Shown: positions 909 through 64,000, numbered from the stretch's first letter. The stretch: DNA of 64,000 nt from Anaerolineae bacterium (GCA_034435375.1 DAOTXR010000073.1:231480-295479); one strand, 5' to 3'. Numbers and translations are program-made. The notes: generated by a model not told the origin, from the letters alone.

Positions 909-1081
909 GGTCTCCTCAAAATCTACCTGCCAGTGCATCATGTGTCGGCTGCTGAGGAAGTCTGCGTGTAAGTGTAGCCGAACGGCAGACGACATACAAG
1001 GTGAGAAACGCGCTGAGTCTAGAACCGCGATCTGTGGTATAGTGCTTGATCATGGGGGATCCGAATGATCTGGAGGCATCC

Positions 1082-1936
1082 ATGACGGAGTACACCATTG
1101 ATGGCCAGCGCATCCACGTCCACGAAGAAGGTGAGCCAGGCCAGCAGATCGCTCTGCTGATCCATGGATGGTCAAGCTCATGGTACGCTGTGTCGCCGTT
1201 GCTGCCCCTGCTGCGCCAACGCTATCACTGTCTGGCTGTTGATCTGCCAGGCTATGGCGAGTCTCCGCCGCTGGCCGAGCGCGCCACGATTCCTGGCTAT
1301 GTGACCCTGCTCATCCGGCTGATCGAGCAGGTGACGGACAAACCTCTAGTGCTGGTGGGTCACTCAATGGGCGGGATGATCAGCCTGACGCTCACCCTTC
1401 AGCGGAGCGACCTGGTAGAGCGGCTGGTGTTGCTGTGCCCGACCATCAGCGGGCTGCTGTCAACCCGCATCAACCTGACACTGACGCCCTTTGTGCTGAT
1501 GGAGCGCTTTGCCCTGACCAACTGGTTGATCAGCGCGCTTGAGCCGCTGGTGCCGGTCACTGACGGCCTGTTGCGCCCTGCATTGTTCGCTGACCGGACT
1601 GGCATCCGCGAGGAGGACTACCAGCGCATCCGGTCCGATGCACGCCGCCCTGGCCAGGGCCGGGTGCGAGCTGAGTGCTTCCGCGCCATGCGCGACAACG
1701 ACCTGCGCGGCAAGCTGAGCGCCATCACTGCGCCTGCGCTGGTGATCTGGGGCATGGAGGATAACACTGTGCCACTGCGCGATGCCAGCGTGGTAGCGCG
1801 TGAGATGCCAGAGGCCGACCTGCGCATCATCCCCAATGCAGGCCACTGGCCCCAGTTTGAAACACCGGAGCTGACCAAGCGCTACGTGCGGGCCTTTCTG
1901 AGCACACCGATTAAGCTGCTCAATCTGGAATTCTAG
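1082..1936 (+). CDS. Alpha/beta-fold hydrolase
   Basis: HGWSSS oxyanion motif, DLPGYG, nucleophile elbow GHSMGG, WGMED acid and AGHW His. GGAGG RBS before ATG 1082. Confidence 0.9.
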   Translation: MTEYTIDGQRIHVHEEGEPGQQIALLIHGWSSSWYAVSPLLPLLRQRYHCLAVDLPGYGESPPLAERATIPGYVTLLIRLIEQVTDKPLVLVGHSMGGMISLTLTLQRSDLVERLVLLCPTISGLLSTRINLTLTPFVLMERFALTNWLISALEPLVPVTDGLLRPALFADRTGIREEDYQRIRSDARRPGQGRVRAECFRAMRDNDLRGKLSAITAPALVIWGMEDNTVPLRDASVVAREMPEADLRIIPNAGHWPQFETPELTKRYVRAFLSTPIKLLNLEF

Positions 1937-54865: not shown

Positions 54866-56107
54866 ATGAATGTGCGAATGGCCCCAGACCCCATTGAAAA
54901 GCTGGCGCTGATCGGCGATGTCAACTGCTATGAATCCGCTGGCGACCGCCCTCACGCCGAGCGTGGCCTGCCCATCCAATTATGCCCCCCGGAGCAGAGC
55001 CGGCGCCGTGAAACCCCCGCCAGGGTAGCCGGTGTTATGTCGTGCATCACTGAGGTGACAACGCCCACAGGCAAAAAACCGGTCCTCAAAGGCATGGTTA
55101 CAACGGCCTGTGAGAAGGATTGTCACTACTGTCCCTTCCGCGCCGGGCGGTCGGCCATGGATCGGGTGACCTTCAGGCCAGACGAGTTGGCGCTGGCCTT
55201 CGATCACCTCCAGCAGGCCAGGCTAGTTGACGGCCTCTTTTTGTCGTCCGGGGTGATCAGGGGTGGAGCATCGACGCAGGATAAGATCATCGATACTGCC
55301 GAGATTATCCGCTGTAAGTACCACTACCAGGGCTACATCCACCTCAAGATTATGCCAGGGGCGGAGCGCGATCAGGTAGTGCGGGCCATGCAGCTTGCCG
55401 ACCGTGTCTCGATCAACCTGGAAGGTCCGACGCCAGAGCGGTTGAGTGCGCTTGCACCTCACAAGGACTTCACAGGCGACTTGCTGGAGCGGATTCAGTG
55501 GGCGCGCGACATCCGGCAACAGGCCGAAGCTAGCGCACCGCGGTCGATCCGAGCCGGAGTAGTGACACAGTTCGTTGTCGGCGCAGTCGGCGATACCGAC
55601 CTGGAGCTGCTGGGGCTGACGGCTAACCTCCATCGACAGATGGGCTTGCGCCGTGTCTACTATTCCGCCTTTAACCCGGTCGCTGAGACGCCGTTCGAGA
55701 ATCTGCCTGCCACGCCGCCGCTGCGCGAGTTCCGGCTGTACCAGGCCAGCTTCCTGATCCGGGATTACGGTTGGGAGGTGGAGGACCTGCCGTTCGAGGG
55801 TGTGGGCAATCTGCGGCTCGATGTGGACCCCAAACGCGCCTGGGCCGAGGAGCACCTGAGAAGCCAGCCAGTCGAGGTCATGCAGGCCACTCGCCAGGAG
55901 CTGATGCGCGTGCCTGGCATCGGCCCCAAAGGCGCCGATGCCATCCTGCGGGCGCGGCGCAAGGGCCGCCTGACCGACCTCGCTCACCTGCGGGCCGTCG
56001 GTGTGCGGAACGTCGTGTGGGCTGCGCCCTACATCCTCCTTGATGGACACAGACCAGTTGAGCAGCTGACCCTTTTTGATGAAAACGTCCTGATTCAGAA
56101 GACATAG
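54866..56107 (+). CDS. Putative DNA modification/repair radical SAM protein with helix-hairpin-helix
   Basis: CEKDCHYC (CX3CX2C), LFLSSG, YIHLK, REFRLYQASFLIRDYG, HhH RVPGIGPK. Confidence 0.88.
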   Translation: MNVRMAPDPIEKLALIGDVNCYESAGDRPHAERGLPIQLCPPEQSRRRETPARVAGVMSCITEVTTPTGKKPVLKGMVTTACEKDCHYCPFRAGRSAMDRVTFRPDELALAFDHLQQARLVDGLFLSSGVIRGGASTQDKIIDTAEIIRCKYHYQGYIHLKIMPGAERDQVVRAMQLADRVSINLEGPTPERLSALAPHKDFTGDLLERIQWARDIRQQAEASAPRSIRAGVVTQFVVGAVGDTDLELLGLTANLHRQMGLRRVYYSAFNPVAETPFENLPATPPLREFRLYQASFLIRDYGWEVEDLPFEGVGNLRLDVDPKRAWAEEHLRSQPVEVMQATRQELMRVPGIGPKGADAILRARRKGRLTDLAHLRAVGVRNVVWAAPYILLDGHRPVEQLTLFDENVLIQKT

Positions 56108-56316
56108 GGACGGCTGCGCCTCTTACACGTTGCCCTTCTCGCCGGACAGAGTGGGGAGCTTGCCTTCCGTGAGAGGCATCAGTGTGTGGAACCCCACAGT
56201 TTGGGGTTCCGTACATAATGGCAAATGTGATACTATTAGCCCCTGACCATGTAATGTTGAGGCAGTGACCTGACTGCACCCGTAGAGGTAGCAGGTTAAG
56301 TGAGAGGGTTAACGAT

Positions 56317-57279
56317 ATGGCTCGCGATCCCGCCATTGCCATGCAGAGTGTTGTGCGCCGCTTTGGGGAGGTCGTTGCTGTCAGCGGAGTGACGCTGGAG
56401 GTCGAGCGTGGTGAGGTTTTCGGCTTCCTGGGTCACAATGGTGCAGGCAAGACAACCACCGTCCGTCTGCTCAATGGTGTGCTGATACCCACCGCAGGCA
56501 CACTTCGGGTGTTGGGCCTCGATCCCGTCACTGAGGGGCCAGCACTGCGTCGCAGGACCGGTATTCTGACCGAGTCGCCATCGCTGGACGAGCGGCTGAC
56601 AGCCCGTGAGAACCTCACCATTTATGCTGTCCTGTACGACGTACCACAGGAGAAGGTTGCCAGCCGCGTTGAGGCCCTGCTGGAGCAATTCGAGCTGGCT
56701 GACCGCGCCGATGAAAAAGTGAGCGGCTACAGCAAAGGCATGAAACAGCGCATGGCGTTGGCTCGTGCGCTGATCCACCAGCCAGAGTTGCTGTTTCTCG
56801 ATGAGCCTACTTCTGGCCTGGACCCCGTAGCGGCGCTGCACGTCCACCAGCTGATCACCCACCTGAGCGGAGAGGGCCGCACCGTGTTTCTGTGCACACA
56901 TAACCTGATCGAAGCACAGAAGCTGTGCGATCGAGTTGCTGTGCTGGAACATGGCCAAGTCCTGGTGATGGGCACGCCTGCTGAGTTAAGCCGCCGTTAT
57001 GCCCATCGGCAGCGCCTCGAAGTTGAGGTGTCACCACAGACCATGCCCACCGCGCTGGGAGCGCTGCAAGCCATGCCGGGCATCACCGACATCACAAGCG
57101 AGAATCACCGCACCCTTGTCTTCTCTGGGGCTGACCACGAGCGGATTCCCGAAGTGGTGACGTTGTTGGTCGGGGCGGGGGTGCGCATCTATCGCATCAC
57201 CCCTCAAGAGCCATCGTTGGAGGATGTCTACTTCGCGCTGCACGGCGAGGGGAAAGCGACTGAGGAGGGGAGAGCATGA
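56317..57279 (+). CDS. ABC transporter ATP-binding protein (exporter type)
   Basis: GHNGAGKTT, YSKGMKQR, LDEPTSGLD. Confidence 0.95.
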   Translation: MARDPAIAMQSVVRRFGEVVAVSGVTLEVERGEVFGFLGHNGAGKTTTVRLLNGVLIPTAGTLRVLGLDPVTEGPALRRRTGILTESPSLDERLTARENLTIYAVLYDVPQEKVASRVEALLEQFELADRADEKVSGYSKGMKQRMALARALIHQPELLFLDEPTSGLDPVAALHVHQLITHLSGEGRTVFLCTHNLIEAQKLCDRVAVLEHGQVLVMGTPAELSRRYAHRQRLEVEVSPQTMPTALGALQAMPGITDITSENHRTLVFSGADHERIPEVVTLLVGAGVRIYRITPQEPSLEDVYFALHGEGKATEEGRA

Positions 57280-58100
57280 ACTGGCGTGGGATCAGGGCTG
57301 TGATAGCCAAAGACTTGAAGGTGGTGATGCGCAGCAAGATGATCATGCTGCCCATGATCATCTTGCCCGTCATTTTGCAAGTGCTCGTGCCCGCTGGATT
57401 TGGCCTAACTGCCTACTTTGCTGCTGACACAATGGCTGCCGACACCGAGGACGACATGCAGGCTATGCTGGAGATGATGCCGCCGGCGGTACGAGAGCAG
57501 ATCGCTGATATGCAGCCCAACCAGGCGTTTCTCACGCTGATGACAGTGTATGTCTTTGCGCCCATGTATCTGATCGTCCCGATGATGGTCGCCAGTGTGA
57601 TCGCTGCCGACAGTTTTGTGGGCGAGCGCGAGCGCAAAACGCTGGAAGCCTTGCTGCACACGCCGCTCACCAACCGAGAGCTTCTGACAGCCAAGATGCT
57701 CTCGGCCTGGTTAGCTGCGATTGGGGTGGCGATGGGCAGCTTCGTGCTGTATGCGCTGGTTGTCAACGGTGTCGGTTGGCTGGTAATGGGCCGCCTGTTT
57801 TTCCCTAACTGGATGTGGATTGTGCTGGTGCTATGGGTCGCACCAGCAGTGGCGGGAATAGGTCTGGGTTTGACGGTCCTGCTCTCGACCCGCGTCAACA
57901 CCTTCCAGGAGGCGTATCAGATGGGGGGTGTGGTTGTGCTGCCGTTGATCGCACTGATGATCGGCCAGCTCGCAGGGGTGATCACCCTGAGCACAGGATC
58001 TACATTAGCTATTGGCGCAGTGTTCTGGATCATTGACGCAGTGATTATCTGGTTGGGGGCCAAGACCTTCGACCGCGATGCCCTGCTCGCGCGGCTGTAG
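57276..58100 (+). CDS. ABC-2 type exporter permease
   Basis: SFVGERERKTLEALLHTPL...AKML; six TM segments; ATGA overlap with the ATPase. Confidence 0.9.
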   Translation: MNWRGIRAVIAKDLKVVMRSKMIMLPMIILPVILQVLVPAGFGLTAYFAADTMAADTEDDMQAMLEMMPPAVREQIADMQPNQAFLTLMTVYVFAPMYLIVPMMVASVIAADSFVGERERKTLEALLHTPLTNRELLTAKMLSAWLAAIGVAMGSFVLYALVVNGVGWLVMGRLFFPNWMWIVLVLWVAPAVAGIGLGLTVLLSTRVNTFQEAYQMGGVVVLPLIALMIGQLAGVITLSTGSTLAIGAVFWIIDAVIIWLGAKTFDRDALLARL

Positions 58101-58208: not shown

Positions 58209-59882
58209 TTACCGGGGCGGACAGCGAATCCCCTCGCCGTCGAAGACAACAAACTCATGGATTGCCTCCCACCGCCCTGCTTCGACCAGCGGCGCTGGCG
58301 CCCCATCGTCGATCACGGCAACAACCTCGTAGCCTGCAATCGTGTCACTGTCTGGCACACACACCGGCAGCAACCCCCAGCCCTGGATGCGGTCGTCGGC
58401 CCAGTCTAATACCCATATCTGCCGGTCGTTCTCCATCATTGCCGTGGGGACAAGCTCTGGCGCAGCCTCTGACCAACGGAGGTAGGCAGGAGACGGCCCC
58501 GGCGGCGGGTCTACGTCGGGATGCGAGACCATCGTGATGTCTCTCCCCTCTGCCAGAGCCATGTAACGAACCGCCCAGCTATAGTAGAACGCGGGCGAGT
58601 TACGGCCCGGCATCAACACCCACGCGCCTGGCTCGGTTTTATCCAATAGCGCCTGGCTGCTCTCAGCAAAAGTGGTATTGTCGCTCTGGTCGACTGCTGG
58701 CAGGTAAGCATACAGGTTGATGGCCAACGCCAGCACCCCTGACCCGGCCAGCGCTGCAAGGTAAGTGTATCCGGACAGGACCCCGCCCTGAATCAGCAGC
58801 AGCCTGTATTGCGGCTGGAGCAATTCCCACACCTGGAGTGCTCCGTATCCGACAAGCGGCGTAGCGATGATATACACCGGGATGAGAAAGTCATGCCAGT
58901 CGGGAATGGCGTAGGCAATGACGAACAGGTACTCAGCCGCCAGGCCCAACACGAACGTCCAGGCCAACTCGGCGCGGCGTTGAAATAGCTCCCATGCGCC
59001 GATGATTCCCAGCGCCAACCCCCACGGCATGAACTGCTGGGCAACCTGACCCAGCGACTCCGGAAGGCGTGCCAGCAGCTCGCGGCGAGGCAGCGCCAAG
59101 ATTTGCGCCCTGAAGGGACCGCCCGTCAGATAGTCGATCAGCCCTGCGGGATCAGTCGCCAGGGACTGCGATGGAATGGGGCAGTAGTTGCAGAAAGGCG
59201 GGTTGGCCGCTGCACGGAGCGGGATGTAGAGGTATTGAAGGGCTGCGACGATCACAATGACGGCAGTGACAGCCAGATGACGTGGGCGCAGCAGCATTGA
59301 GCGGTCCGTGATCTGGACGATGTACAGGAATACCGGCAGCAGCAGGATCATCGACAGGTGATTGCCAAAGCTGAGAGCGTATACAACGACCGCTGACCAG
59401 TACGCGGCAGGGTTGCGCGTTTGGTGCCATGTCACTAACAGGTAGAGCACCAGCGCGACATACAACCCGTTCAACGAATACAGTTCCGCAATGCTGGCCT
59501 GGTACCACACGCGCGGCGCGACAGCCAAGAGCAACGCCGCAAAGCTGCTCGTGACCAGATTTTGTGTCAGGCGATAAGTCAACAGGAAAGTCACCCCGAT
59601 CATCGCCGAGGCGCACAGCGCTGACATCAGGTTGAGAAGGTAGGCCGGGCTGGGGCCAGGGATGGCCGTCATGATCAAGCGCCCCAGCATGAGATACTGA
59701 GGACTGCCCGGTGGGTGGATCACGCCGCCGACCAGTGCTGCAATCTGGAGTTCCATGCTGTCCAACGACGGCCCAACGCCGGGGTGCAATGTCTGCAGAT
59801 AGAGACCCAGCGACAGTAGTCCTACCGCGAATGCTGCCAGTAGCACGATGCGCGACACAGAGGATTGATCAGACTCTGGCAC
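58209..59882 (-). CDS. DUF2723 / TMEM260-like GT-C membrane glycosyltransferase
   Basis: LDSMELQ...HPPGSPQY, AELYSLN, LSFGNHL; multiple TMs; GTG start after GGGAGAG. Confidence 0.8.
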   Translation of the reverse strand: MPESDQSSVSRIVLLAAFAVGLLSLGLYLQTLHPGVGPSLDSMELQIAALVGGVIHPPGSPQYLMLGRLIMTAIPGPSPAYLLNLMSALCASAMIGVTFLLTYRLTQNLVTSSFAALLLAVAPRVWYQASIAELYSLNGLYVALVLYLLVTWHQTRNPAAYWSAVVVYALSFGNHLSMILLLPVFLYIVQITDRSMLLRPRHLAVTAVIVIVAALQYLYIPLRAAANPPFCNYCPIPSQSLATDPAGLIDYLTGGPFRAQILALPRRELLARLPESLGQVAQQFMPWGLALGIIGAWELFQRRAELAWTFVLGLAAEYLFVIAYAIPDWHDFLIPVYIIATPLVGYGALQVWELLQPQYRLLLIQGGVLSGYTYLAALAGSGVLALAINLYAYLPAVDQSDNTTFAESSQALLDKTEPGAWVLMPGRNSPAFYYSWAVRYMALAEGRDITMVSHPDVDPPPGPSPAYLRWSEAAPELVPTAMMENDRQIWVLDWADDRIQGWGLLPVCVPDSDTIAGYEVVAVIDDGAPAPLVEAGRWEAIHEFVVFDGEGIRCPPR

Positions 59883-60141
59883 AGCACTTCTCTCCCGGCC
59901 TGCAGAATAAGGGGTCACCGACGGGGGCAATTGTGCCCCCTGAGCGACAGATCGGCAACTACGCGATCCCGCTTGTCACCTCTTATGGCGTGCTCCTCGC
60001 CGCAACCGCCTTGCTTGCTGTCCGCTTTTTGTCCCATTCTGGACCGATTCGCCCTCTGAAGGCGCGAGCATTTCCTTCAGACTGAGAACAGCCGCCCTGG
60101 GAAGGCAGGCGGCGAGTCTCAGGAGAAAGGAGCGCCAGCCT

Positions 60142-60192
60142 ATGTCAAGCCCCGGTTCCCCCGGCTCTGGAGGGGGAGGCGACCCCGTCTAG
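60142..60192 (+). CDS. Candidate micro-peptide MSSPGSPGSGGGGDPV
   Basis: AAAGGAG RBS 9 nt upstream of the ATG; downstream 15-bp hairpin; below the ORF-track size cut-off. Confidence 0.4.
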   Translation: MSSPGSPGSGGGGDPV

Positions 60193-60219
60193 GGGTCATC
60201 CTGTCCGACCTTCCAGAGA

Positions 60220-60258
60220 ACACAAGGAGAGCAGTCCGGTGGGCTGCTCTCCTTGTGT
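60220..60258. terminator. 15-bp hairpin, probable bidirectional terminator
   Basis: ACACAAGGAGAGCAG-N9-CTGCTCTCCTTGTGT between the micro-ORF and the CHAT gene 3' end. Confidence 0.75.
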
Positions 60259-60323
60259 GATGGAATGCTGATCAGACTGGAGATGGACGTATGCCAGACC
60301 TGGCGCTTTTTCTGTACACCTCG

Positions 60324-63300
60324 TTACGGCCTGCCAAACAGGCTAAAGGGCGCCCAGTAATAGGCTTCCAGACCACTCCGAGCGGCGGTCCGCTGCGCTT
60401 GGGCCAGCGCGGCCAGCGGACTTTCCCCCTGATTGAGTGCAGCGTAAAACTCAGCCATCAGATCGGCGGTCTGTGCGTCGGCAGCCAGCCACAGGCTTGC
60501 TACAACAGCCTGGGCGCCAGTGCTCAGAAAAGCCTGAGCCAGCCCTGAAATCTCGTCTCCATAATGCCAGCGCCCCATCCCACTCTGGCATGCCGATAGC
60601 GTCACCAGCCGTGCTGCCAGCCGCCATTGTGCAATGTCTCCAATTGTCAGGATGCCGGAGCCAATCAGCAGCCCGGTAAAAGCGCCGGTGGCCGGATCGA
60701 CATAGGCGTGGGTAGCCAGGTGCAGCCAGTCATAGCCGAAGAGCCTGCCTTGCGCTCCATCCTCGGCCAGCTTGTTGCAGTCTATTTCAGCAGACAGCAA
60801 CATCCGGATGCGGTTACTCTGCTGTACCACAGCCTCGACTTCCTGCGTGATGTGCGGCAGGTCGGAGTAGCCGGGCATGTCGAAGTGCGTCTGCGCCACC
60901 AACAGCCCCTGTCCTTCCACCGGCGGCGGTGGAGCAGACCGCTCCATCAAGCTGGCCAGCAGACTCAGCGACGGCGTGTACAGCAACCTACTCCGTTCGA
61001 TCAGCGGCGCTTCGTCATCTAGCAGGGCCTGAAATGCCAGTCCATGAAGCTGGTGGGAGGGGACGATGATCAGGGTGTGGTCCGGATGCAGACGAGCGCG
61101 CACGGCGGCGGGTATGAGCAGTCCAAACAGGTCGCGGCGACTGGCCAGGCTGAGGGGGAGGGCATTGCTCTGCACCGAAGAACGGCCCAGGTAGGCGAAC
61201 CGGCGAAATGTATCATCGGGGTTGGTGCACAGACGTAGCGCCGGCTGTGTCCGTCCTTCCAGCGGGATGTGATGCCAATCCAGGCCAGTGGGAGTCAGAG
61301 TGAACAGGAGGAGGCTCCGGCGATGCCAGGCGTAGCGCAGCACAGTCCATGCGCGACCCAGGCAGCGGTTCAGTTGCTCAGTCAGGCGAGCCGCCAGCGT
61401 CTCAAGATCGTGTCCCTCCGGCGGCAAGTAACCCAGCCGAGCGCTGAGCAGTTGAGCGCCTTGTAGCTCAGCGATGATGAATGCCCGCGCCGAGTCCCCC
61501 AACTCGCTGGCGATGTCCAGTGCGCTGTCGTAGGTTGGCTGCCAGGTCCGGGCGAGCTGCCCCGCTTCTTCCTCGCGGTGCAGAGTGCGACGGGCTGCCC
61601 GGACCTGGCTCAGGGCATCTAGGTAGGATTGCAGGGCTTCCTGAGGACGATGCTGTGCATGGGCAACCTTGCCTGACAGAGCGCAATGCCGCCAACGCAG
61701 AATGGGCGGCAGCGAGCCAACCTCCAGGTGGTCCAGCTCCCGGCTGGCCTCATCGCTGCGGCCCAGGTCAGTGTATGCCTCAGCGATGCCGAGCTGGGCT
61801 TCCCAGGCTGCCTCGCGCTGACTCAGAGCTTTGAACTCGCTCAGGCTGGCCTGATACAACTCAAGGGCTGTTGAGGGGTTGCCCTGGCTCATGAACACAT
61901 CGGCGCGGGTTCGCCTGCACAGCGCCACATCGAAGTCAACTCCGGCAGCTTGAGCCTGTTCAGCAGCCCGGTCCAGCAGAGCATGGGCGCGATCAGGCTG
62001 CCCGCGCTGGGCCAGAAGCTGCGCCAACAAGGTCACTGGCTGGGCAGCCAAAGCGCCGGGGCCGAGCTGATCGGCAATTCGAATAGCACTCTCCAGATGT
62101 TCGATGGCTGGCTCCAGGTAGCCGAATGTGGCGTAAGTCTTGCCCAGGTTGTTGTGCGCCGTGGCAAGCAATTCCAGATAACGCTCGCGCTCGAAGACCG
62201 TCCGAGCCTCGTTGATCAAGCGCAGCGATTCGGAGAAGTTCCCTTCACGGCGGGCGACCACGCCCAGATTCAGGGTGCAGGTTGCGCTGAAGATCGGGTC
62301 ACCGACCTGGTTATACAACTCAGCTGCCCGGCGATAACCGGCAGCGGCTGCCTGATAATCGCCCTGCTGCAAGCGGTGGTTGGCAATTGTCAGTTCACTG
62401 TGAGCCAGAGTGGCTTTGAGGTCGAGACGGATCGCCAACAAGCTGATGTGAACCCAGGTCTGGAGATGGCGATCCAGGTTCCCCTGCTGAAACTGGATGG
62501 CTGCGATGTCTGTCAGGCTAAGGAGCTGATAGTATTCGTGCCGGAGCGCCTTTGCCCGGTTGTGAGCGGCCCACGACCAGTGTAGCGCCTGATCTACTTG
62601 ATGGCGCTGAGAGTAGTAGACGCTTCGCACCATCCAGGCAAAACACAGCATAGCCGTCATATCTCTCTGGCTGAAGGTCTCCTCCGCCTGATCTAGCAGC
62701 CCCAGCCCAGCCTCAAGCTCCCCTCGGTACAGCAGGTCACGCGCTTCAATCGACAGCGCGATGGCCCTGTCAGCTGGGAGGTCATGGCTGGCGAAGAACT
62801 GCTTGGCGTCTCGGAGGACGACTTGCGCCTCTGTGCGGCGGGTGTCTGCAAGCAACGAATACACAGCATTCAGCCGACAGCGTTGCGCATTGATTGCGTC
62901 ACCGGAGGCGTCCAACCGGTCGGCGATGCTCATCAGGCGGCTATCGGTGCCACGCAGTCCCATCAGGCGACGTTCGCACAAGACAGCGTGCCATTCGGCC
63001 ACCAGAAGCGACTGTTGGGTATCTAGCTCTGGCAACGCCTCATCGAGACAGTCCCTGGCATCGCGATAGTATCCCCACCAGCACAACGCAATCCCCAGAC
63101 CTGCGACAGCCTGAGCCACCAGAGATGGCTCCTGGCAGCTCCAGGCTGCTTTGAGCGCACCCAGCCCCTGGGCAACGCTCAGCACCGGGTTCTCACGGGC
63201 CAGTTCCAGGGCAGCCGCAGGGAGCATGTGTGGGTTTTGAGATAGGAGCCGGGCGCCATCGGCCTCGGCTGCATCCATGCGATAGGGCAGTACAAGGGTC

Positions 63301-63350
63301 GAGTCAACGGCGTGCAGGCGTTCGTATAGCAGAGAGAGGTCAGCGGGCAT
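60324..63350 (-). CDS. TPR-repeat plus CHAT (caspase-fold) protease (start ATG 63350 or TTG 63389)
   Basis: TPR units such as TLNLGVVARREGNFSESL and HNNLGKTYATFGYLEPAI; CHAT motifs LIIVPSHQLHGL.F.AL, HLATHA (His), LVTLSACQSG (Cys), GLAQAFL..G..AVVASLW, YYWAPFSLFG. Confidence 0.92.
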   Translation of the reverse strand: MPADLSLLYERLHAVDSTLVLPYRMDAAEADGARLLSQNPHMLPAAALELARENPVLSVAQGLGALKAAWSCQEPSLVAQAVAGLGIALCWWGYYRDARDCLDEALPELDTQQSLLVAEWHAVLCERRLMGLRGTDSRLMSIADRLDASGDAINAQRCRLNAVYSLLADTRRTEAQVVLRDAKQFFASHDLPADRAIALSIEARDLLYRGELEAGLGLLDQAEETFSQRDMTAMLCFAWMVRSVYYSQRHQVDQALHWSWAAHNRAKALRHEYYQLLSLTDIAAIQFQQGNLDRHLQTWVHISLLAIRLDLKATLAHSELTIANHRLQQGDYQAAAAGYRRAAELYNQVGDPIFSATCTLNLGVVARREGNFSESLRLINEARTVFERERYLELLATAHNNLGKTYATFGYLEPAIEHLESAIRIADQLGPGALAAQPVTLLAQLLAQRGQPDRAHALLDRAAEQAQAAGVDFDVALCRRTRADVFMSQGNPSTALELYQASLSEFKALSQREAAWEAQLGIAEAYTDLGRSDEASRELDHLEVGSLPPILRWRHCALSGKVAHAQHRPQEALQSYLDALSQVRAARRTLHREEEAGQLARTWQPTYDSALDIASELGDSARAFIIAELQGAQLLSARLGYLPPEGHDLETLAARLTEQLNRCLGRAWTVLRYAWHRRSLLLFTLTPTGLDWHHIPLEGRTQPALRLCTNPDDTFRRFAYLGRSSVQSNALPLSLASRRDLFGLLIPAAVRARLHPDHTLIIVPSHQLHGLAFQALLDDEAPLIERSRLLYTPSLSLLASLMERSAPPPPVEGQGLLVAQTHFDMPGYSDLPHITQEVEAVVQQSNRIRMLLSAEIDCNKLAEDGAQGRLFGYDWLHLATHAYVDPATGAFTGLLIGSGILTIGDIAQWRLAARLVTLSACQSGMGRWHYGDEISGLAQAFLSTGAQAVVASLWLAADAQTADLMAEFYAALNQGESPLAALAQAQRTAARSGLEAYYWAPFSLFGRP

Positions 63351-63363
63351 GGATGTGAGGCTT

Positions 63364-64000
63364 CTACGTTTGGGCGTTATCTGTCTCAAGTGTCAGGTGG
63401 ATACGCTCCACACGGTCGTCCTGGTCGAACCGCACATTCTCGAAGCTCATGCGCCCATCCTGCACCTGAGCATGATACATGTGGCTGCCGATGAAAAGAC
63501 GCGCGTGGACAGTTGGAGGCAGCGAATCGGCGTAGAGATCGCCGGTGATAGTGTATTGGCCGGCTTCATCCTCCCCGTGCAGTGTCAGCATCACCAGCAC
63601 CGGGTCTTCACCGAGCAGAATTGTGTCGTAGAGCAGCAGACGGCCTCCGGGCTGGATCGGGCCAAAGCCACGCGCGGCCCTGACCTGGATCGGCTCTGCT
63701 ACCCTGCTGATGGGCAGCACGATGTGAGCCTGGAACATCTGACCGTTGCTGCCTGGCGCTACTATGTACTGGACTTGGTCAGGGTGTCGAAGGAACTGCA
63801 ACGTGTCAGCGGGAATGAGTTTGCTCTCGCCGAGGTCGTCTGCGCGCAGAAGGTCGGCGAGCAACGCCTGGCAGACCAGACACTGTCCCAGATGAAACGC
63901 CACCTGAGGATACATGGTCGCAGCGTCGCGGTGGGCCTGAAGCAAGTCGGCATAACGAGGCAGAAGCTCGACGTACAGCCAGTGATCTTCAAAACCAGTG
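63364..64000 (-). CDS. Zinc anti-sigma (ZAS)-like protein with C-terminal beta-rich domain, N-terminus beyond the window edge
   Basis: The frame is open to the edge: ...ELLPRYADLLQAHRDAATMYPQVAFHLGQCLVCQALL (HxxxCxxC), followed by a beta-strand-rich region with no TM. Confidence 0.7.
   Translation of the reverse strand, partial: TGFEDHWLYVELLPRYADLLQAHRDAATMYPQVAFHLGQCLVCQALLADLLRADDLGESKLIPADTLQFLRHPDQVQYIVAPGSNGQMFQAHIVLPISRVAEPIQVRAARGFGPIQPGGRLLLYDTILLGEDPVLVMLTLHGEDEAGQYTITGDLYADSLPPTVHARLFIGSHMYHAQVQDGRMSFENVRFDQDDRVERIHLTLETDNAQT

Follow-up and report, generated by a model that had tools for sequence, protein, structure and literature searches.

In a 64,000-nucleotide stretch of the genome of an Anaerolineae bacterium (GCA_034435375.1, DAOTXR010000073.1:231480-295479; hereafter, the window), a 16-codon open reading frame (micro-ORF) faces the 3' end of a gene encoding a TPR-CHAT protein. 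Judging from its sequence and from that of its relatives, this frame very probably is a genuine coding gene that is conserved and coupled to the TPR gene. The best overall explanation, to which we give about an even chance, is that of a micropeptide gene acting together with a TPR-ligand switch; the mechanism itself, in which the peptide would lie in the TPR groove and gate the protease, is proposed somewhat more tentatively, at a little under even. The source genome measures 4.2 Mb (60% G+C, 96 contigs); in it, a 393-bp spacer separates the minus-strand glycosyltransferase and TPR-CHAT genes, and the micro-ORF lies inside this spacer, on the plus strand. The features of the locus, in window coordinates, are the following:

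58209-59930, minus strand: TMEM260-like glycosyltransferase gene, one border of the 393-bp spacer.
60019-60046, plus strand: triple direct repeat TGTCCG, TGTCCC, GGACCG with 11-nt spacing and T-rich spacers, from gapless promoter alignments; presumed activator binding site.
60078-60083, plus strand: -10-like hexamer CAGACT, exactly 31 nt past the third repeat.
60084-60141, plus strand: presumed 5' untranslated region (5' UTR), from a deduced transcription start, with a GCCGCC/GGCGGC repeat (60091-60113) and the Shine-Dalgarno (SD) sequence AAAGGAG (60126-60132).
60142-60192, plus strand: micro-ORF, 16 codons and a TAG, for a Ser/Pro/Gly-rich peptide; start ATG at 60142, TAG at 60190-60192.
60220-60258, either strand: hairpin with an 18-bp stem between the two convergent stops, from folding; presumed bidirectional terminator.
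60292-60315, plus strand: second terminator-like site, a 5-bp stem followed by a T-run.
60324-63389, minus strand: TPR-CHAT protein of 1021 aa, convergent with the micro-ORF (Pfam CHAT 5.5e-50, TPR_12 1.2e-22).
63364-64000, minus strand, extending to 64023 past the window end: 219-aa zinc-anti-sigma-like gene, overlapping the CHAT start by 26 nt.

The peptide encoded by the 16-codon frame is MSSPGSPGSGGGGDPV. An earlier reading of this DNA, made from the sequence alone (the sequence-only reading), had proposed an AAAGGAG site nine nucleotides ahead of the ATG of a 16-codon ORF, and a 15-bp terminator common to the CHAT gene. Both were found: the SD sequence occupies 60126-60132, with the ATG at 60142, and the inverted repeat at 60220-60258 has an 18-bp stem, 15 bp of which are perfect. 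Two other hairpins that it had drawn stood in part: GCCGCC (60091-60096) and GGCGGC (60108-60113) are present upstream, but the minimum-energy fold of the 5' UTR omits their pairing; GACCCC (60181-60186) and GGGGTC (60192-60197) do flank the stop, but a hairpin of this kind was not seen at orthologous loci. The 176-nt stretch as a whole folds at -93.1 kcal/mol (z -4.25), and none of 200 shuffles folds equally well; the 5' UTR alone folds no better than shuffled sequence (z 0.13, 115 of 200 shuffles being as good), and 5' UTR hairpins across 10 loci gave z values from -1.84 to +1.39, none of them convincing. SD sites are in use in this genome, AGGAG being found upstream of 11.3% of 3690 crude gene starts vs. 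1.6% of 20,000 random 20-mers. The pattern of a Gly run ending in Pro-Val/Ile/Leu and a stop has 35 six-frame matches in the 4.2 Mb, and an SD-preceded start with no more than 40 residues is found solely at this locus. A lone SD-ATG frame of 16 codons in 64 kb is unremarkable by itself, and it is the comparative evidence that is decisive.

A search by DNA similarity with the 393-bp spacer retrieved no match from 40 relatives, and the conservation is thus visible solely as architecture. Full-length TPR-CHAT orthologs, 30-49% identical to that of the window, are harbored by 11 of the 23 other genomes of the family and by none of the 358 genomes from the remaining order (E 1e-60). In 6 of the 13 loci first examined, that of the window included, a frame of 14-19 codons with a Gly run and a Pro-Val/Ile end faces the CHAT stop, and a sense-orientation counterpart of this frame past the stop was found in none of the 13. 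The seven distinct cases obtained by adding one metagenome contig have an AAGGAG-like site 6-10 nt before the ATG and show third-position variation among their Gly codons; three further variants beside CHAT genes, found by a promoter model, differ in their C-terminal residues. Overall, a Gly/Pro-rich ORF of 13-19 codons, one per genome, is present in 11 of the 24 family genomes, and all 13 family micro-ORFs are preceded by an SD sequence 6-11 nt before the ATG. The micro-ORF stop lies between -4 and 131 nt from that of the TPR-CHAT gene in seven genomes and two metagenome contigs. Small ORFs of like composition, with the corresponding ribosome-binding site and promoter, accompany the homologous TPR-CHAT genes of seven further genera and two metagenome contigs; the conservation of a small ORF beside homologous CHAT genes, on which the sequence-only reading depended, was therefore borne out. 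Hairpins like that at 60220-60258 were recognized by eye between micro-ORF and partner stop in five of the first seven orthologous loci, and the genes lying downstream of the TPR-CHAT orthologs, beyond the micro-ORF, differ between genera.

As a control, 139 loci with distant CHAT paralogs, drawn from two public collections, were searched over 450 nt downstream, on either strand, and the Gly-run pattern was absent from all of them. Furthermore, an unbiased scan for SD-preceded Gly-rich small ORFs on both strands of 171 loci (826 kb) returned 22 loci, 16 of which correspond to the micro-ORF and six to unrelated frames. A degenerate DNA pattern for the whole gene, run on 41 genomes, retrieved just four known cases amid noise and was abandoned in favor of promoter models. 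As a separate observation, the TPR-CHAT ortholog of one genome (G011; L012/L018) is broken by a single TGA, in frame and situated between the solenoid and CHAT portions, and the micro-ORF is retained there.

Each family micro-ORF has, upstream, a promoter with three direct repeats resembling TGTCCG, which recur every 11 nt and are separated by T-rich spacers; exactly 31 nt beyond the third repeat there is a hexamer nAnnnT and then a G. Ten promoters (alignment A4), and later fifteen (A5), align without gaps, and A2 and T6 of the hexamer, as well as the following G, are invariant in 15/15. The triple repeat at 60019-60046 is the sole one in the 4.2-Mb genome, on which a model built from the promoter sequence only (R1) gave one strong match (53.9 bits). 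Applied to the 24 family genomes, R1 gave a single match per genome, of 41-61 bits, in 12 of them, the next best anywhere scoring 18.7 bits; 11 of these 12 promoters precede an SD-ATG micro-ORF of 13-19 codons. A simple sigma-70 scan called no promoter at the micro-ORF, which would fit a weak -35 element and dependence on an activator. The phasing of the direct repeats is, we presume, akin to that of the sites of OmpR/WalR-type regulators. Moreover, in two genomes from other families of the class (G509, L297 239-316; G477, L298) three to four TGTCCG repeats stand at the same spacing from an A/T-rich -10 region, with no micro-ORF; the gene that follows was taken, by eye, to be degV-like. Since the same repeat geometry recurs in these two genomes, a class-wide factor with very few targets per genome is likely.

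When the R1 search was extended to the order, it matched the window family and one weak case (G116), which has the same promoter geometry, an SD sequence, a 17-codon Pro-rich ORF, a hairpin and a convergent gene for a 401-aa TPR_12 protein without a CHAT domain. A second model (R2), run on 151 genomes of this sister family, identified 30 loci in 29 genomes. In 25 of them an SD-ATG Pro-rich micro-ORF of 10-38 codons starts 24-63 nt after the promoter block; the other five matches were discarded as false, one lacking an ORF and four lying inside an opposite-strand gene, presumably RelA/SpoT-like HD as judged by eye from its motifs. The micro-ORF is tail-to-tail with the gene for a TPR protein of 305-426 aa in 22 of the 25 loci, with gaps of 2-88 nt in 19 of these 22. 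Taking the two families together, there are 31 tail-to-tail loci (9 in the window family and 22 in the sister family), with gaps between -4 and 131 nt in 28. The sister partners are assigned by Pfam to generic TPR families only (TPR_12) and by NCBIfam to none, and no CHAT domain was detected in them. Because the partner in the sister family is TPR-only, the link of the micropeptide is with the TPR array and not with the protease. Two sister micro-ORFs carry an internally duplicated Pro-rich motif (L256 1316-1432 and L273 1341-1427, of 38 and 28 codons, respectively), and one sister genome (G288) harbors two copies of the micro-gene on different contigs.

The family so defined comprises 38 micro-genes, whose peptides contain 29.6% Pro and 18.2% Gly, vs. 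9.1% and 5.0% in 72 control small SD-preceded ORFs from the same loci; Lys and Arg together account for 2.9%, the length ranges from 10 to 38 residues, and no hydrophobic N-terminal stretch is present. In many of them an N-terminal aromatic residue is followed by Asp-Pro. In five pairs of equal length the differences at codon positions 1, 2 and 3 number 9, 8 and 23, respectively, and in one pair all five changes are synonymous. Furthermore, two genomes (G002 and G020) share 85% identity over 3 kb, in which the sole fully identical 60-nt window is that of the ORF and its SD sequence; we read this, from sequence comparison, as probable purifying selection on the micro-ORF, and the identity extending to synonymous sites hints at constraint at the nucleotide level as well.

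This last datum, together with the short and self-contained transcript that is predicted, would also suit a small regulatory RNA, possibly with a dual function, in which the G-rich stretch pairs with a target or forms a G-quadruplex and the ORF is secondary or incidental; (GGN)n sequences can form two-tier quadruplexes. The chances of such an RNA appear very slim, because an SD sequence and an ATG are kept in 13/13 family and 25/25 sister micro-genes, the substitutions are in excess at third positions, and the sister family is C-rich (Pro codons) rather than G-rich on the same strand. Moreover, Rfam gave no match at E 0.01 in five related loci of the sister family, and its best hit in the window was a miRNA model at 22.6 bits (gathering score 44.7) that merely fits the terminator hairpin. 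A purely non-coding RNA, which the sequence-only reading had kept as its alternative, is on the same grounds of conserved SD and ATG and third-position excess unlikely.

The same reading had also considered a precursor of a ribosomally synthesized and post-translationally modified peptide (RiPP). A small peptide gene beside a TPR protein, with a radical-SAM gene 4 kb away (54866-56107) and ABC transporter genes on both sides, could in principle denote such a precursor, or else a quorum-sensing pro-peptide that is exported, processed and re-imported in the strict RRNPP manner. We consider either of them very improbable: peptides of 10-38 residues with no hydrophobic or basic N-terminal segment are too short for a leader plus a core, the TPR gene is the only conserved neighbor across the 31 loci, with no modification enzyme among the conserved neighbors, and the conserved stretches of the TPR-CHAT and anti-sigma-like proteins all fall short of membrane-helix hydropathy.

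According to its AlphaFold2 (AF2) model (predicted local distance difference test, pLDDT, 83.8), the TPR-CHAT protein consists of an alpha-solenoid of about 630 residues (approximately 18-650), a beta unit and the CHAT domain (752-1019); no helix-turn-helix (HTH) domain was found in it by Pfam or in the model. Residues H894 and C934, which we assume from their motifs to be the catalytic dyad, are invariant in 8 orthologs. In a Foldseek search the model matched DdvA best (6.9e-14 over 1044 columns), together with separase (about 1e-13) and Csx29 (7.1e-13), with TM-scores that are low (0.2-0.45), as expected for long flexible solenoids; the NCBIfam model for Csx29 gave 28.3 bits, vs. a cut-off of 300. 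The 219-aa anti-sigma-like gene is conserved upstream of the CHAT gene at every ortholog locus with a tested flank. Its family has an H-x3-C-x2-C motif in the 8 full-length rows of the alignment (A3) and a nearly invariant Pro-Gly-Gly-Arg-Leu stretch; Pfam zf-HC2 is recognized in 3 of 11 members (best E 0.43), and no sequence match was retrieved for it from the PDB. This gene is preceded, on the same strand, by a conserved gene of the sigma-70 family, whose profile matches RpoS, SigA and extracytoplasmic function (ECF) sigma chains at 1.5e-5 to 5e-4; Pfam finds Sigma70_r4_2 in 6/8 and Sigma70_r2 in 2/8 members.

This sigma factor was evaluated as the reader of the micro-gene promoter and rejected: no TGTCCG repeat occurs upstream of five sigma operons, and in the sister family, which has the same promoter, the sigma matches are merely generic (42-49 bits) and coincide with the promoter in 7 of 29 promoter-positive genomes, about five being expected by chance. 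In one genome (G018; L229/L248 1495-2404) the micro-gene promoter, with its leader and initial codons, continues directly into a sigma gene of this family, which is full-length and followed by a gene for a DUF3054 membrane protein, with no adjacent anti-sigma or CHAT gene; the arrangement resembles a rearrangement that placed the sigma gene under the micro-gene promoter.

A gene adjoining a CHAT protease with invariant His and Cys might encode a pseudo-substrate, a substrate or an active-site inhibitor of that protease, and the sequence-only reading had envisaged a peptide cut after Asp or blocking the active site. Since Pro-Gly-Gly-type stretches occur both in the peptides (7 of 13 family members carry Asp/Asn-Pro-Gly-Gly/Ser) and in the anti-sigma-like protein (Pro-Gly-Gly-Arg-Leu), a common recognition motif is conceivable. 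The conserved partner in the sister family lacks the CHAT domain, the Asp preceding the C-terminal Pro(-Val) is present in a minority of family members and is not conserved, and the tripeptide Pro-Gly-Gly is common; this proposal consequently lost ground, and we rate it as quite improbable.

The interpretation that we favor, a peptide binding to the TPR array, can be set out in steps. The micro-gene would form a transcription unit of its own, with an activator-type promoter, a short leader, a strong ribosome-binding site, the ORF and a terminator hairpin common to the convergent gene. It belongs to a family of peptide genes (10-38 codons, without an export signal) that, in two families of one Anaerolineae order, is genetically coupled to a TPR solenoid protein of the cytoplasmic, Rap/NprR-like kind. 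The peptide would act inside the cell as the ligand of the solenoid: stretched out along the concave groove of the protein encoded next to it, the peptide would alter the conformation of that protein; its occupancy would switch the caspase-like CHAT protease, which would then remove the anti-sigma factor and free the sigma factor, following the logic proposed for DdvA-DdvS and Csx29-Csx30-CASP-sigma. Since it is the TPR array that recurs as the partner in both families, the protease, together with the sigma/anti-sigma pair, seems to be an output acquired in the window family.

DdvA joins a zinc anti-sigma domain to a periplasmic TPR-CHAT part; its activating signal is given as unknown, validation of its mechanism as possible only once that signal is found, and DdvA-like proteins as reported only from Myxococcota and one Comamonas (PMC11506125). 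The window locus resembles DdvA-DdvS in combining a sigma factor, a zinc-anti-sigma-type domain and a TPR-CHAT protein, the model of which has DdvA as its best structural match. DdvA, in contrast, is one transmembrane polypeptide, whereas the 219-aa and 1021-aa proteins here are separate and have no conserved membrane helix; moreover, the accessible text mentions no neighboring micropeptide gene (PMC11506125). By analogy, the locus looks like a split, soluble form of the DdvA-DdvS logic. In the type III-E CRISPR Craspase, according to the model given in PMC10028731, cleavage by Csx29 relieves the inhibition of a sigma factor by Csx30. The likeness to Csx29-Csx30-CASP-sigma concerns a cytoplasmic TPR-CHAT protease of similar fold that is proposed to free a sigma factor by cutting its inhibitor; however, the present locus has no CRISPR effector, and Csx29 is activated by target RNA that Cas7-11 has bound, a role that would fall here to a peptide.

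The TPR-only partner of the sister family offers a simpler object for comparison. Its AF2 model (pLDDT 90.9) is one continuous helical solenoid without an HTH. The TPR-only partners can be aligned with each other (A6), and they appear related to the TPR array of the window family, since hhalign matched them to residues 165-522 of the TPR-CHAT protein (probability 98.1%, E 1.2e-13, columns 10-376, 356 columns), a score that may be inflated by the similarity among repeats. VIA-align superposed the model, over about 330 residues, on RapF with its peptide (Z 27.2), a phage Rap with its pheromone (26.8), NprR (24.4) and AimR (22.1); because unrelated, generic TPR solenoids (APPBP2, APC subunits and LGN) score Z 24-31, as high as Rap, this match to the Rap/NprR/AimR fold is not specific. 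The top match was APPBP2 with an RxxGP degron (PDB 8jal; Z 31.3, rmsd 3.2 over 364 residues). APPBP2, the CRL2 substrate receptor, likewise is a TPR solenoid gripping the end of a short Gly/Pro-containing peptide, but it is a eukaryotic ubiquitin-ligase adaptor, and the resemblance is one of fold only, silent on descent or function. The prediction of a complex between a natural 38-aa peptide of the family and its own TPR partner scored 0.02 (mark 0.32), which speaks neither for nor against binding.

The sequence-only reading had likened the pair to RRNPP systems, in which a TPR protein is switched by a short peptide encoded next to it; the comparison, as regards a TPR protein with a neighboring peptide gene, gains support from the sister family with its TPR-only partner. 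As in Rap-Phr, NprR-NprX, Rgg-SHP and AimR-AimP, a cytoplasmic, all-helical TPR-type protein of about 400 aa stands beside a tiny peptide gene, and the superposition on RapF, phage Rap, NprR and AimR covers almost the entire modeled partner, albeit not specifically. The TPR-only partner further resembles Rap in lacking an HTH, which other RRNPP members carry at the N-terminus. Convergence of the peptide gene has a precedent in one SHP/Rgg group. On the other hand, there is no sequence-family match beyond the generic TPR_12 and the phylum is Chloroflexota; the peptides are Pro/Gly-rich, devoid of an export signal by sequence and far shorter than Phr pro-peptides; the promoter consists of three direct repeats instead of a palindromic box; and the receptor candidate of the window carries a CHAT protease tied to a sigma/anti-sigma pair. 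The broader proposal, in which a Rap-like family of TPR receptors in Chloroflexota has a leaderless, Pro/Gly-rich micropeptide as its dedicated signal, and the receptor is fused here to a CHAT protease whose cleavage of the anti-sigma factor is gated by the peptide, we regard as doubtful. If it were true, it would represent the first peptide-gated TPR-CHAT protease and the first RRNPP-like system outside the Firmicutes and their phages, and the single-copy triple-repeat promoter would supply a regulated, perhaps feedback-coupled, production of the signal.

The lack of specificity of the fold match and the possible inflation of the hhalign score weigh against the interpretation of the micropeptide as a TPR ligand, and so do several other data. 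All the genomes compared are metagenome-assembled. The first Gly-run pattern was framed after the initial matches had been seen; the later promoter models and the unbiased scan are less circular. In three genomes (G002, G020 and G005) the micro-gene, in each case with an SD sequence, a Gly/Pro-rich ORF of 13-15 codons and a terminator, is unlinked to a CHAT gene, and in three others (G001, G004 and G021) the anti-sigma-like gene is present and a match to the promoter model is absent; one of these, G004 (completeness 93%), possesses a TPR-CHAT gene as well, at 42% identity. It follows from these two groups of genomes that the protease module can occur without, or apart from, the peptide gene. 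The linkage may also be in part passive, since a tight tail-to-tail spacing leaves few breakpoints that would separate the two genes. Furthermore, in the window genome the sigma gene (equivalent to about 64030-64160; L204, about 1030-1160, minus strand) carries a 5-nt tandem duplication that puts region 4 out of frame, the orthologs being intact; the cause may be a genuine lesion, variation within the population or an error of the metagenome assembly, and, the sigma gene being frameshifted, the output arm may be dead or mis-assembled.

To the same side belongs the immediate divergent neighbor of the promoter, which in 4 of 12 family genomes is a fused glyQS gene, encoding glycyl-tRNA synthetase (Pfam 9.4e-134 in G002, L221; 2e-133 in G018, L248; 9.8e-136 in G006, L014; and, in G020, L220, through its 85% DNA identity to G002); in G000 glyQS lies on a different contig. 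This arrangement would suit a cis-acting sensor of translation, in which the run of Gly/Pro codons would pause ribosomes upon shortage of Gly-tRNA, Pro-tRNA or elongation factor P, the peptide being a by-product, and in which the pause would alter the termination or stability of the short transcript and, through the 3' overlap, the convergent TPR mRNA. Codon runs of this type resemble those of classical leader peptides, and polyproline stalling is known. In agreement with such a sensor, Gly or Pro codon runs occur throughout the 38 micro-ORFs, even the synonymous sites are unchanged between the ORFs of G002 and G020, and the hairpin between the two stops is missing from two genomes (G009 and G007). 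On the contrary, no gene follows in the same orientation, a strong hairpin and then the convergent gene being found in five of the first seven loci; the search for competing terminator and antiterminator folds was negative, and shuffled sequences fold as well as the leaders; no prolyl-tRNA synthetase is encoded among the 11 upstream genes scanned in the Pro-rich family; and residues outside the runs are conserved too, such as the N-terminal aromatic one followed by Asp-Pro. In the light of these data, both the pausing of ribosomes as the function of the frame and its effect on the two transcripts seem unlikely, though worth keeping in mind.

As regards novelty, the full-text literature, judged from listings and exclusive of subscription journals, yielded no description of such a micropeptide gene. 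Within the general type of a TPR receptor with a cognate small-peptide gene, this case stands out by a peptide that is rich in Pro/Gly and leaderless, by the triple-repeat promoter, by an output through CHAT protease and sigma factor, and by its occurrence in Chloroflexota. The activating signals of stand-alone TPR-CHAT proteases and of DdvA-type anti-sigma factors are unknown, and a coupled micropeptide represents a concrete candidate ligand for them. If the peptide acts inside the cell that produces it, the pairing of TPR protein and peptide would be used differently from quorum sensing. The 16-codon gene, missed by gene callers, was recognizable from the conservation of promoter and synteny alone; the family of 38 micro-genes comes with a testable promoter motif, and peptide signaling was not found described for the phylum in the literature searched.

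Lastly, the surroundings of the locus can be briefly described. On one flank (54866-58100) there are genes for a radical-SAM and helix-hairpin-helix protein (the radical-SAM gene at 54866-56107) and for an ABC-2 type transporter pair; on the other flank (L204 2107-6298, equivalent to 65106-69297 of the window) there are those for an ABC ATPase, a permease and an 834-aa protein with ABC_transp_aux and WD40. Moreover, a G+C-rich inverted repeat of 7 bp, noted by eye, lies at 59924-59941, at the annotated start of the glycosyltransferase ORF.

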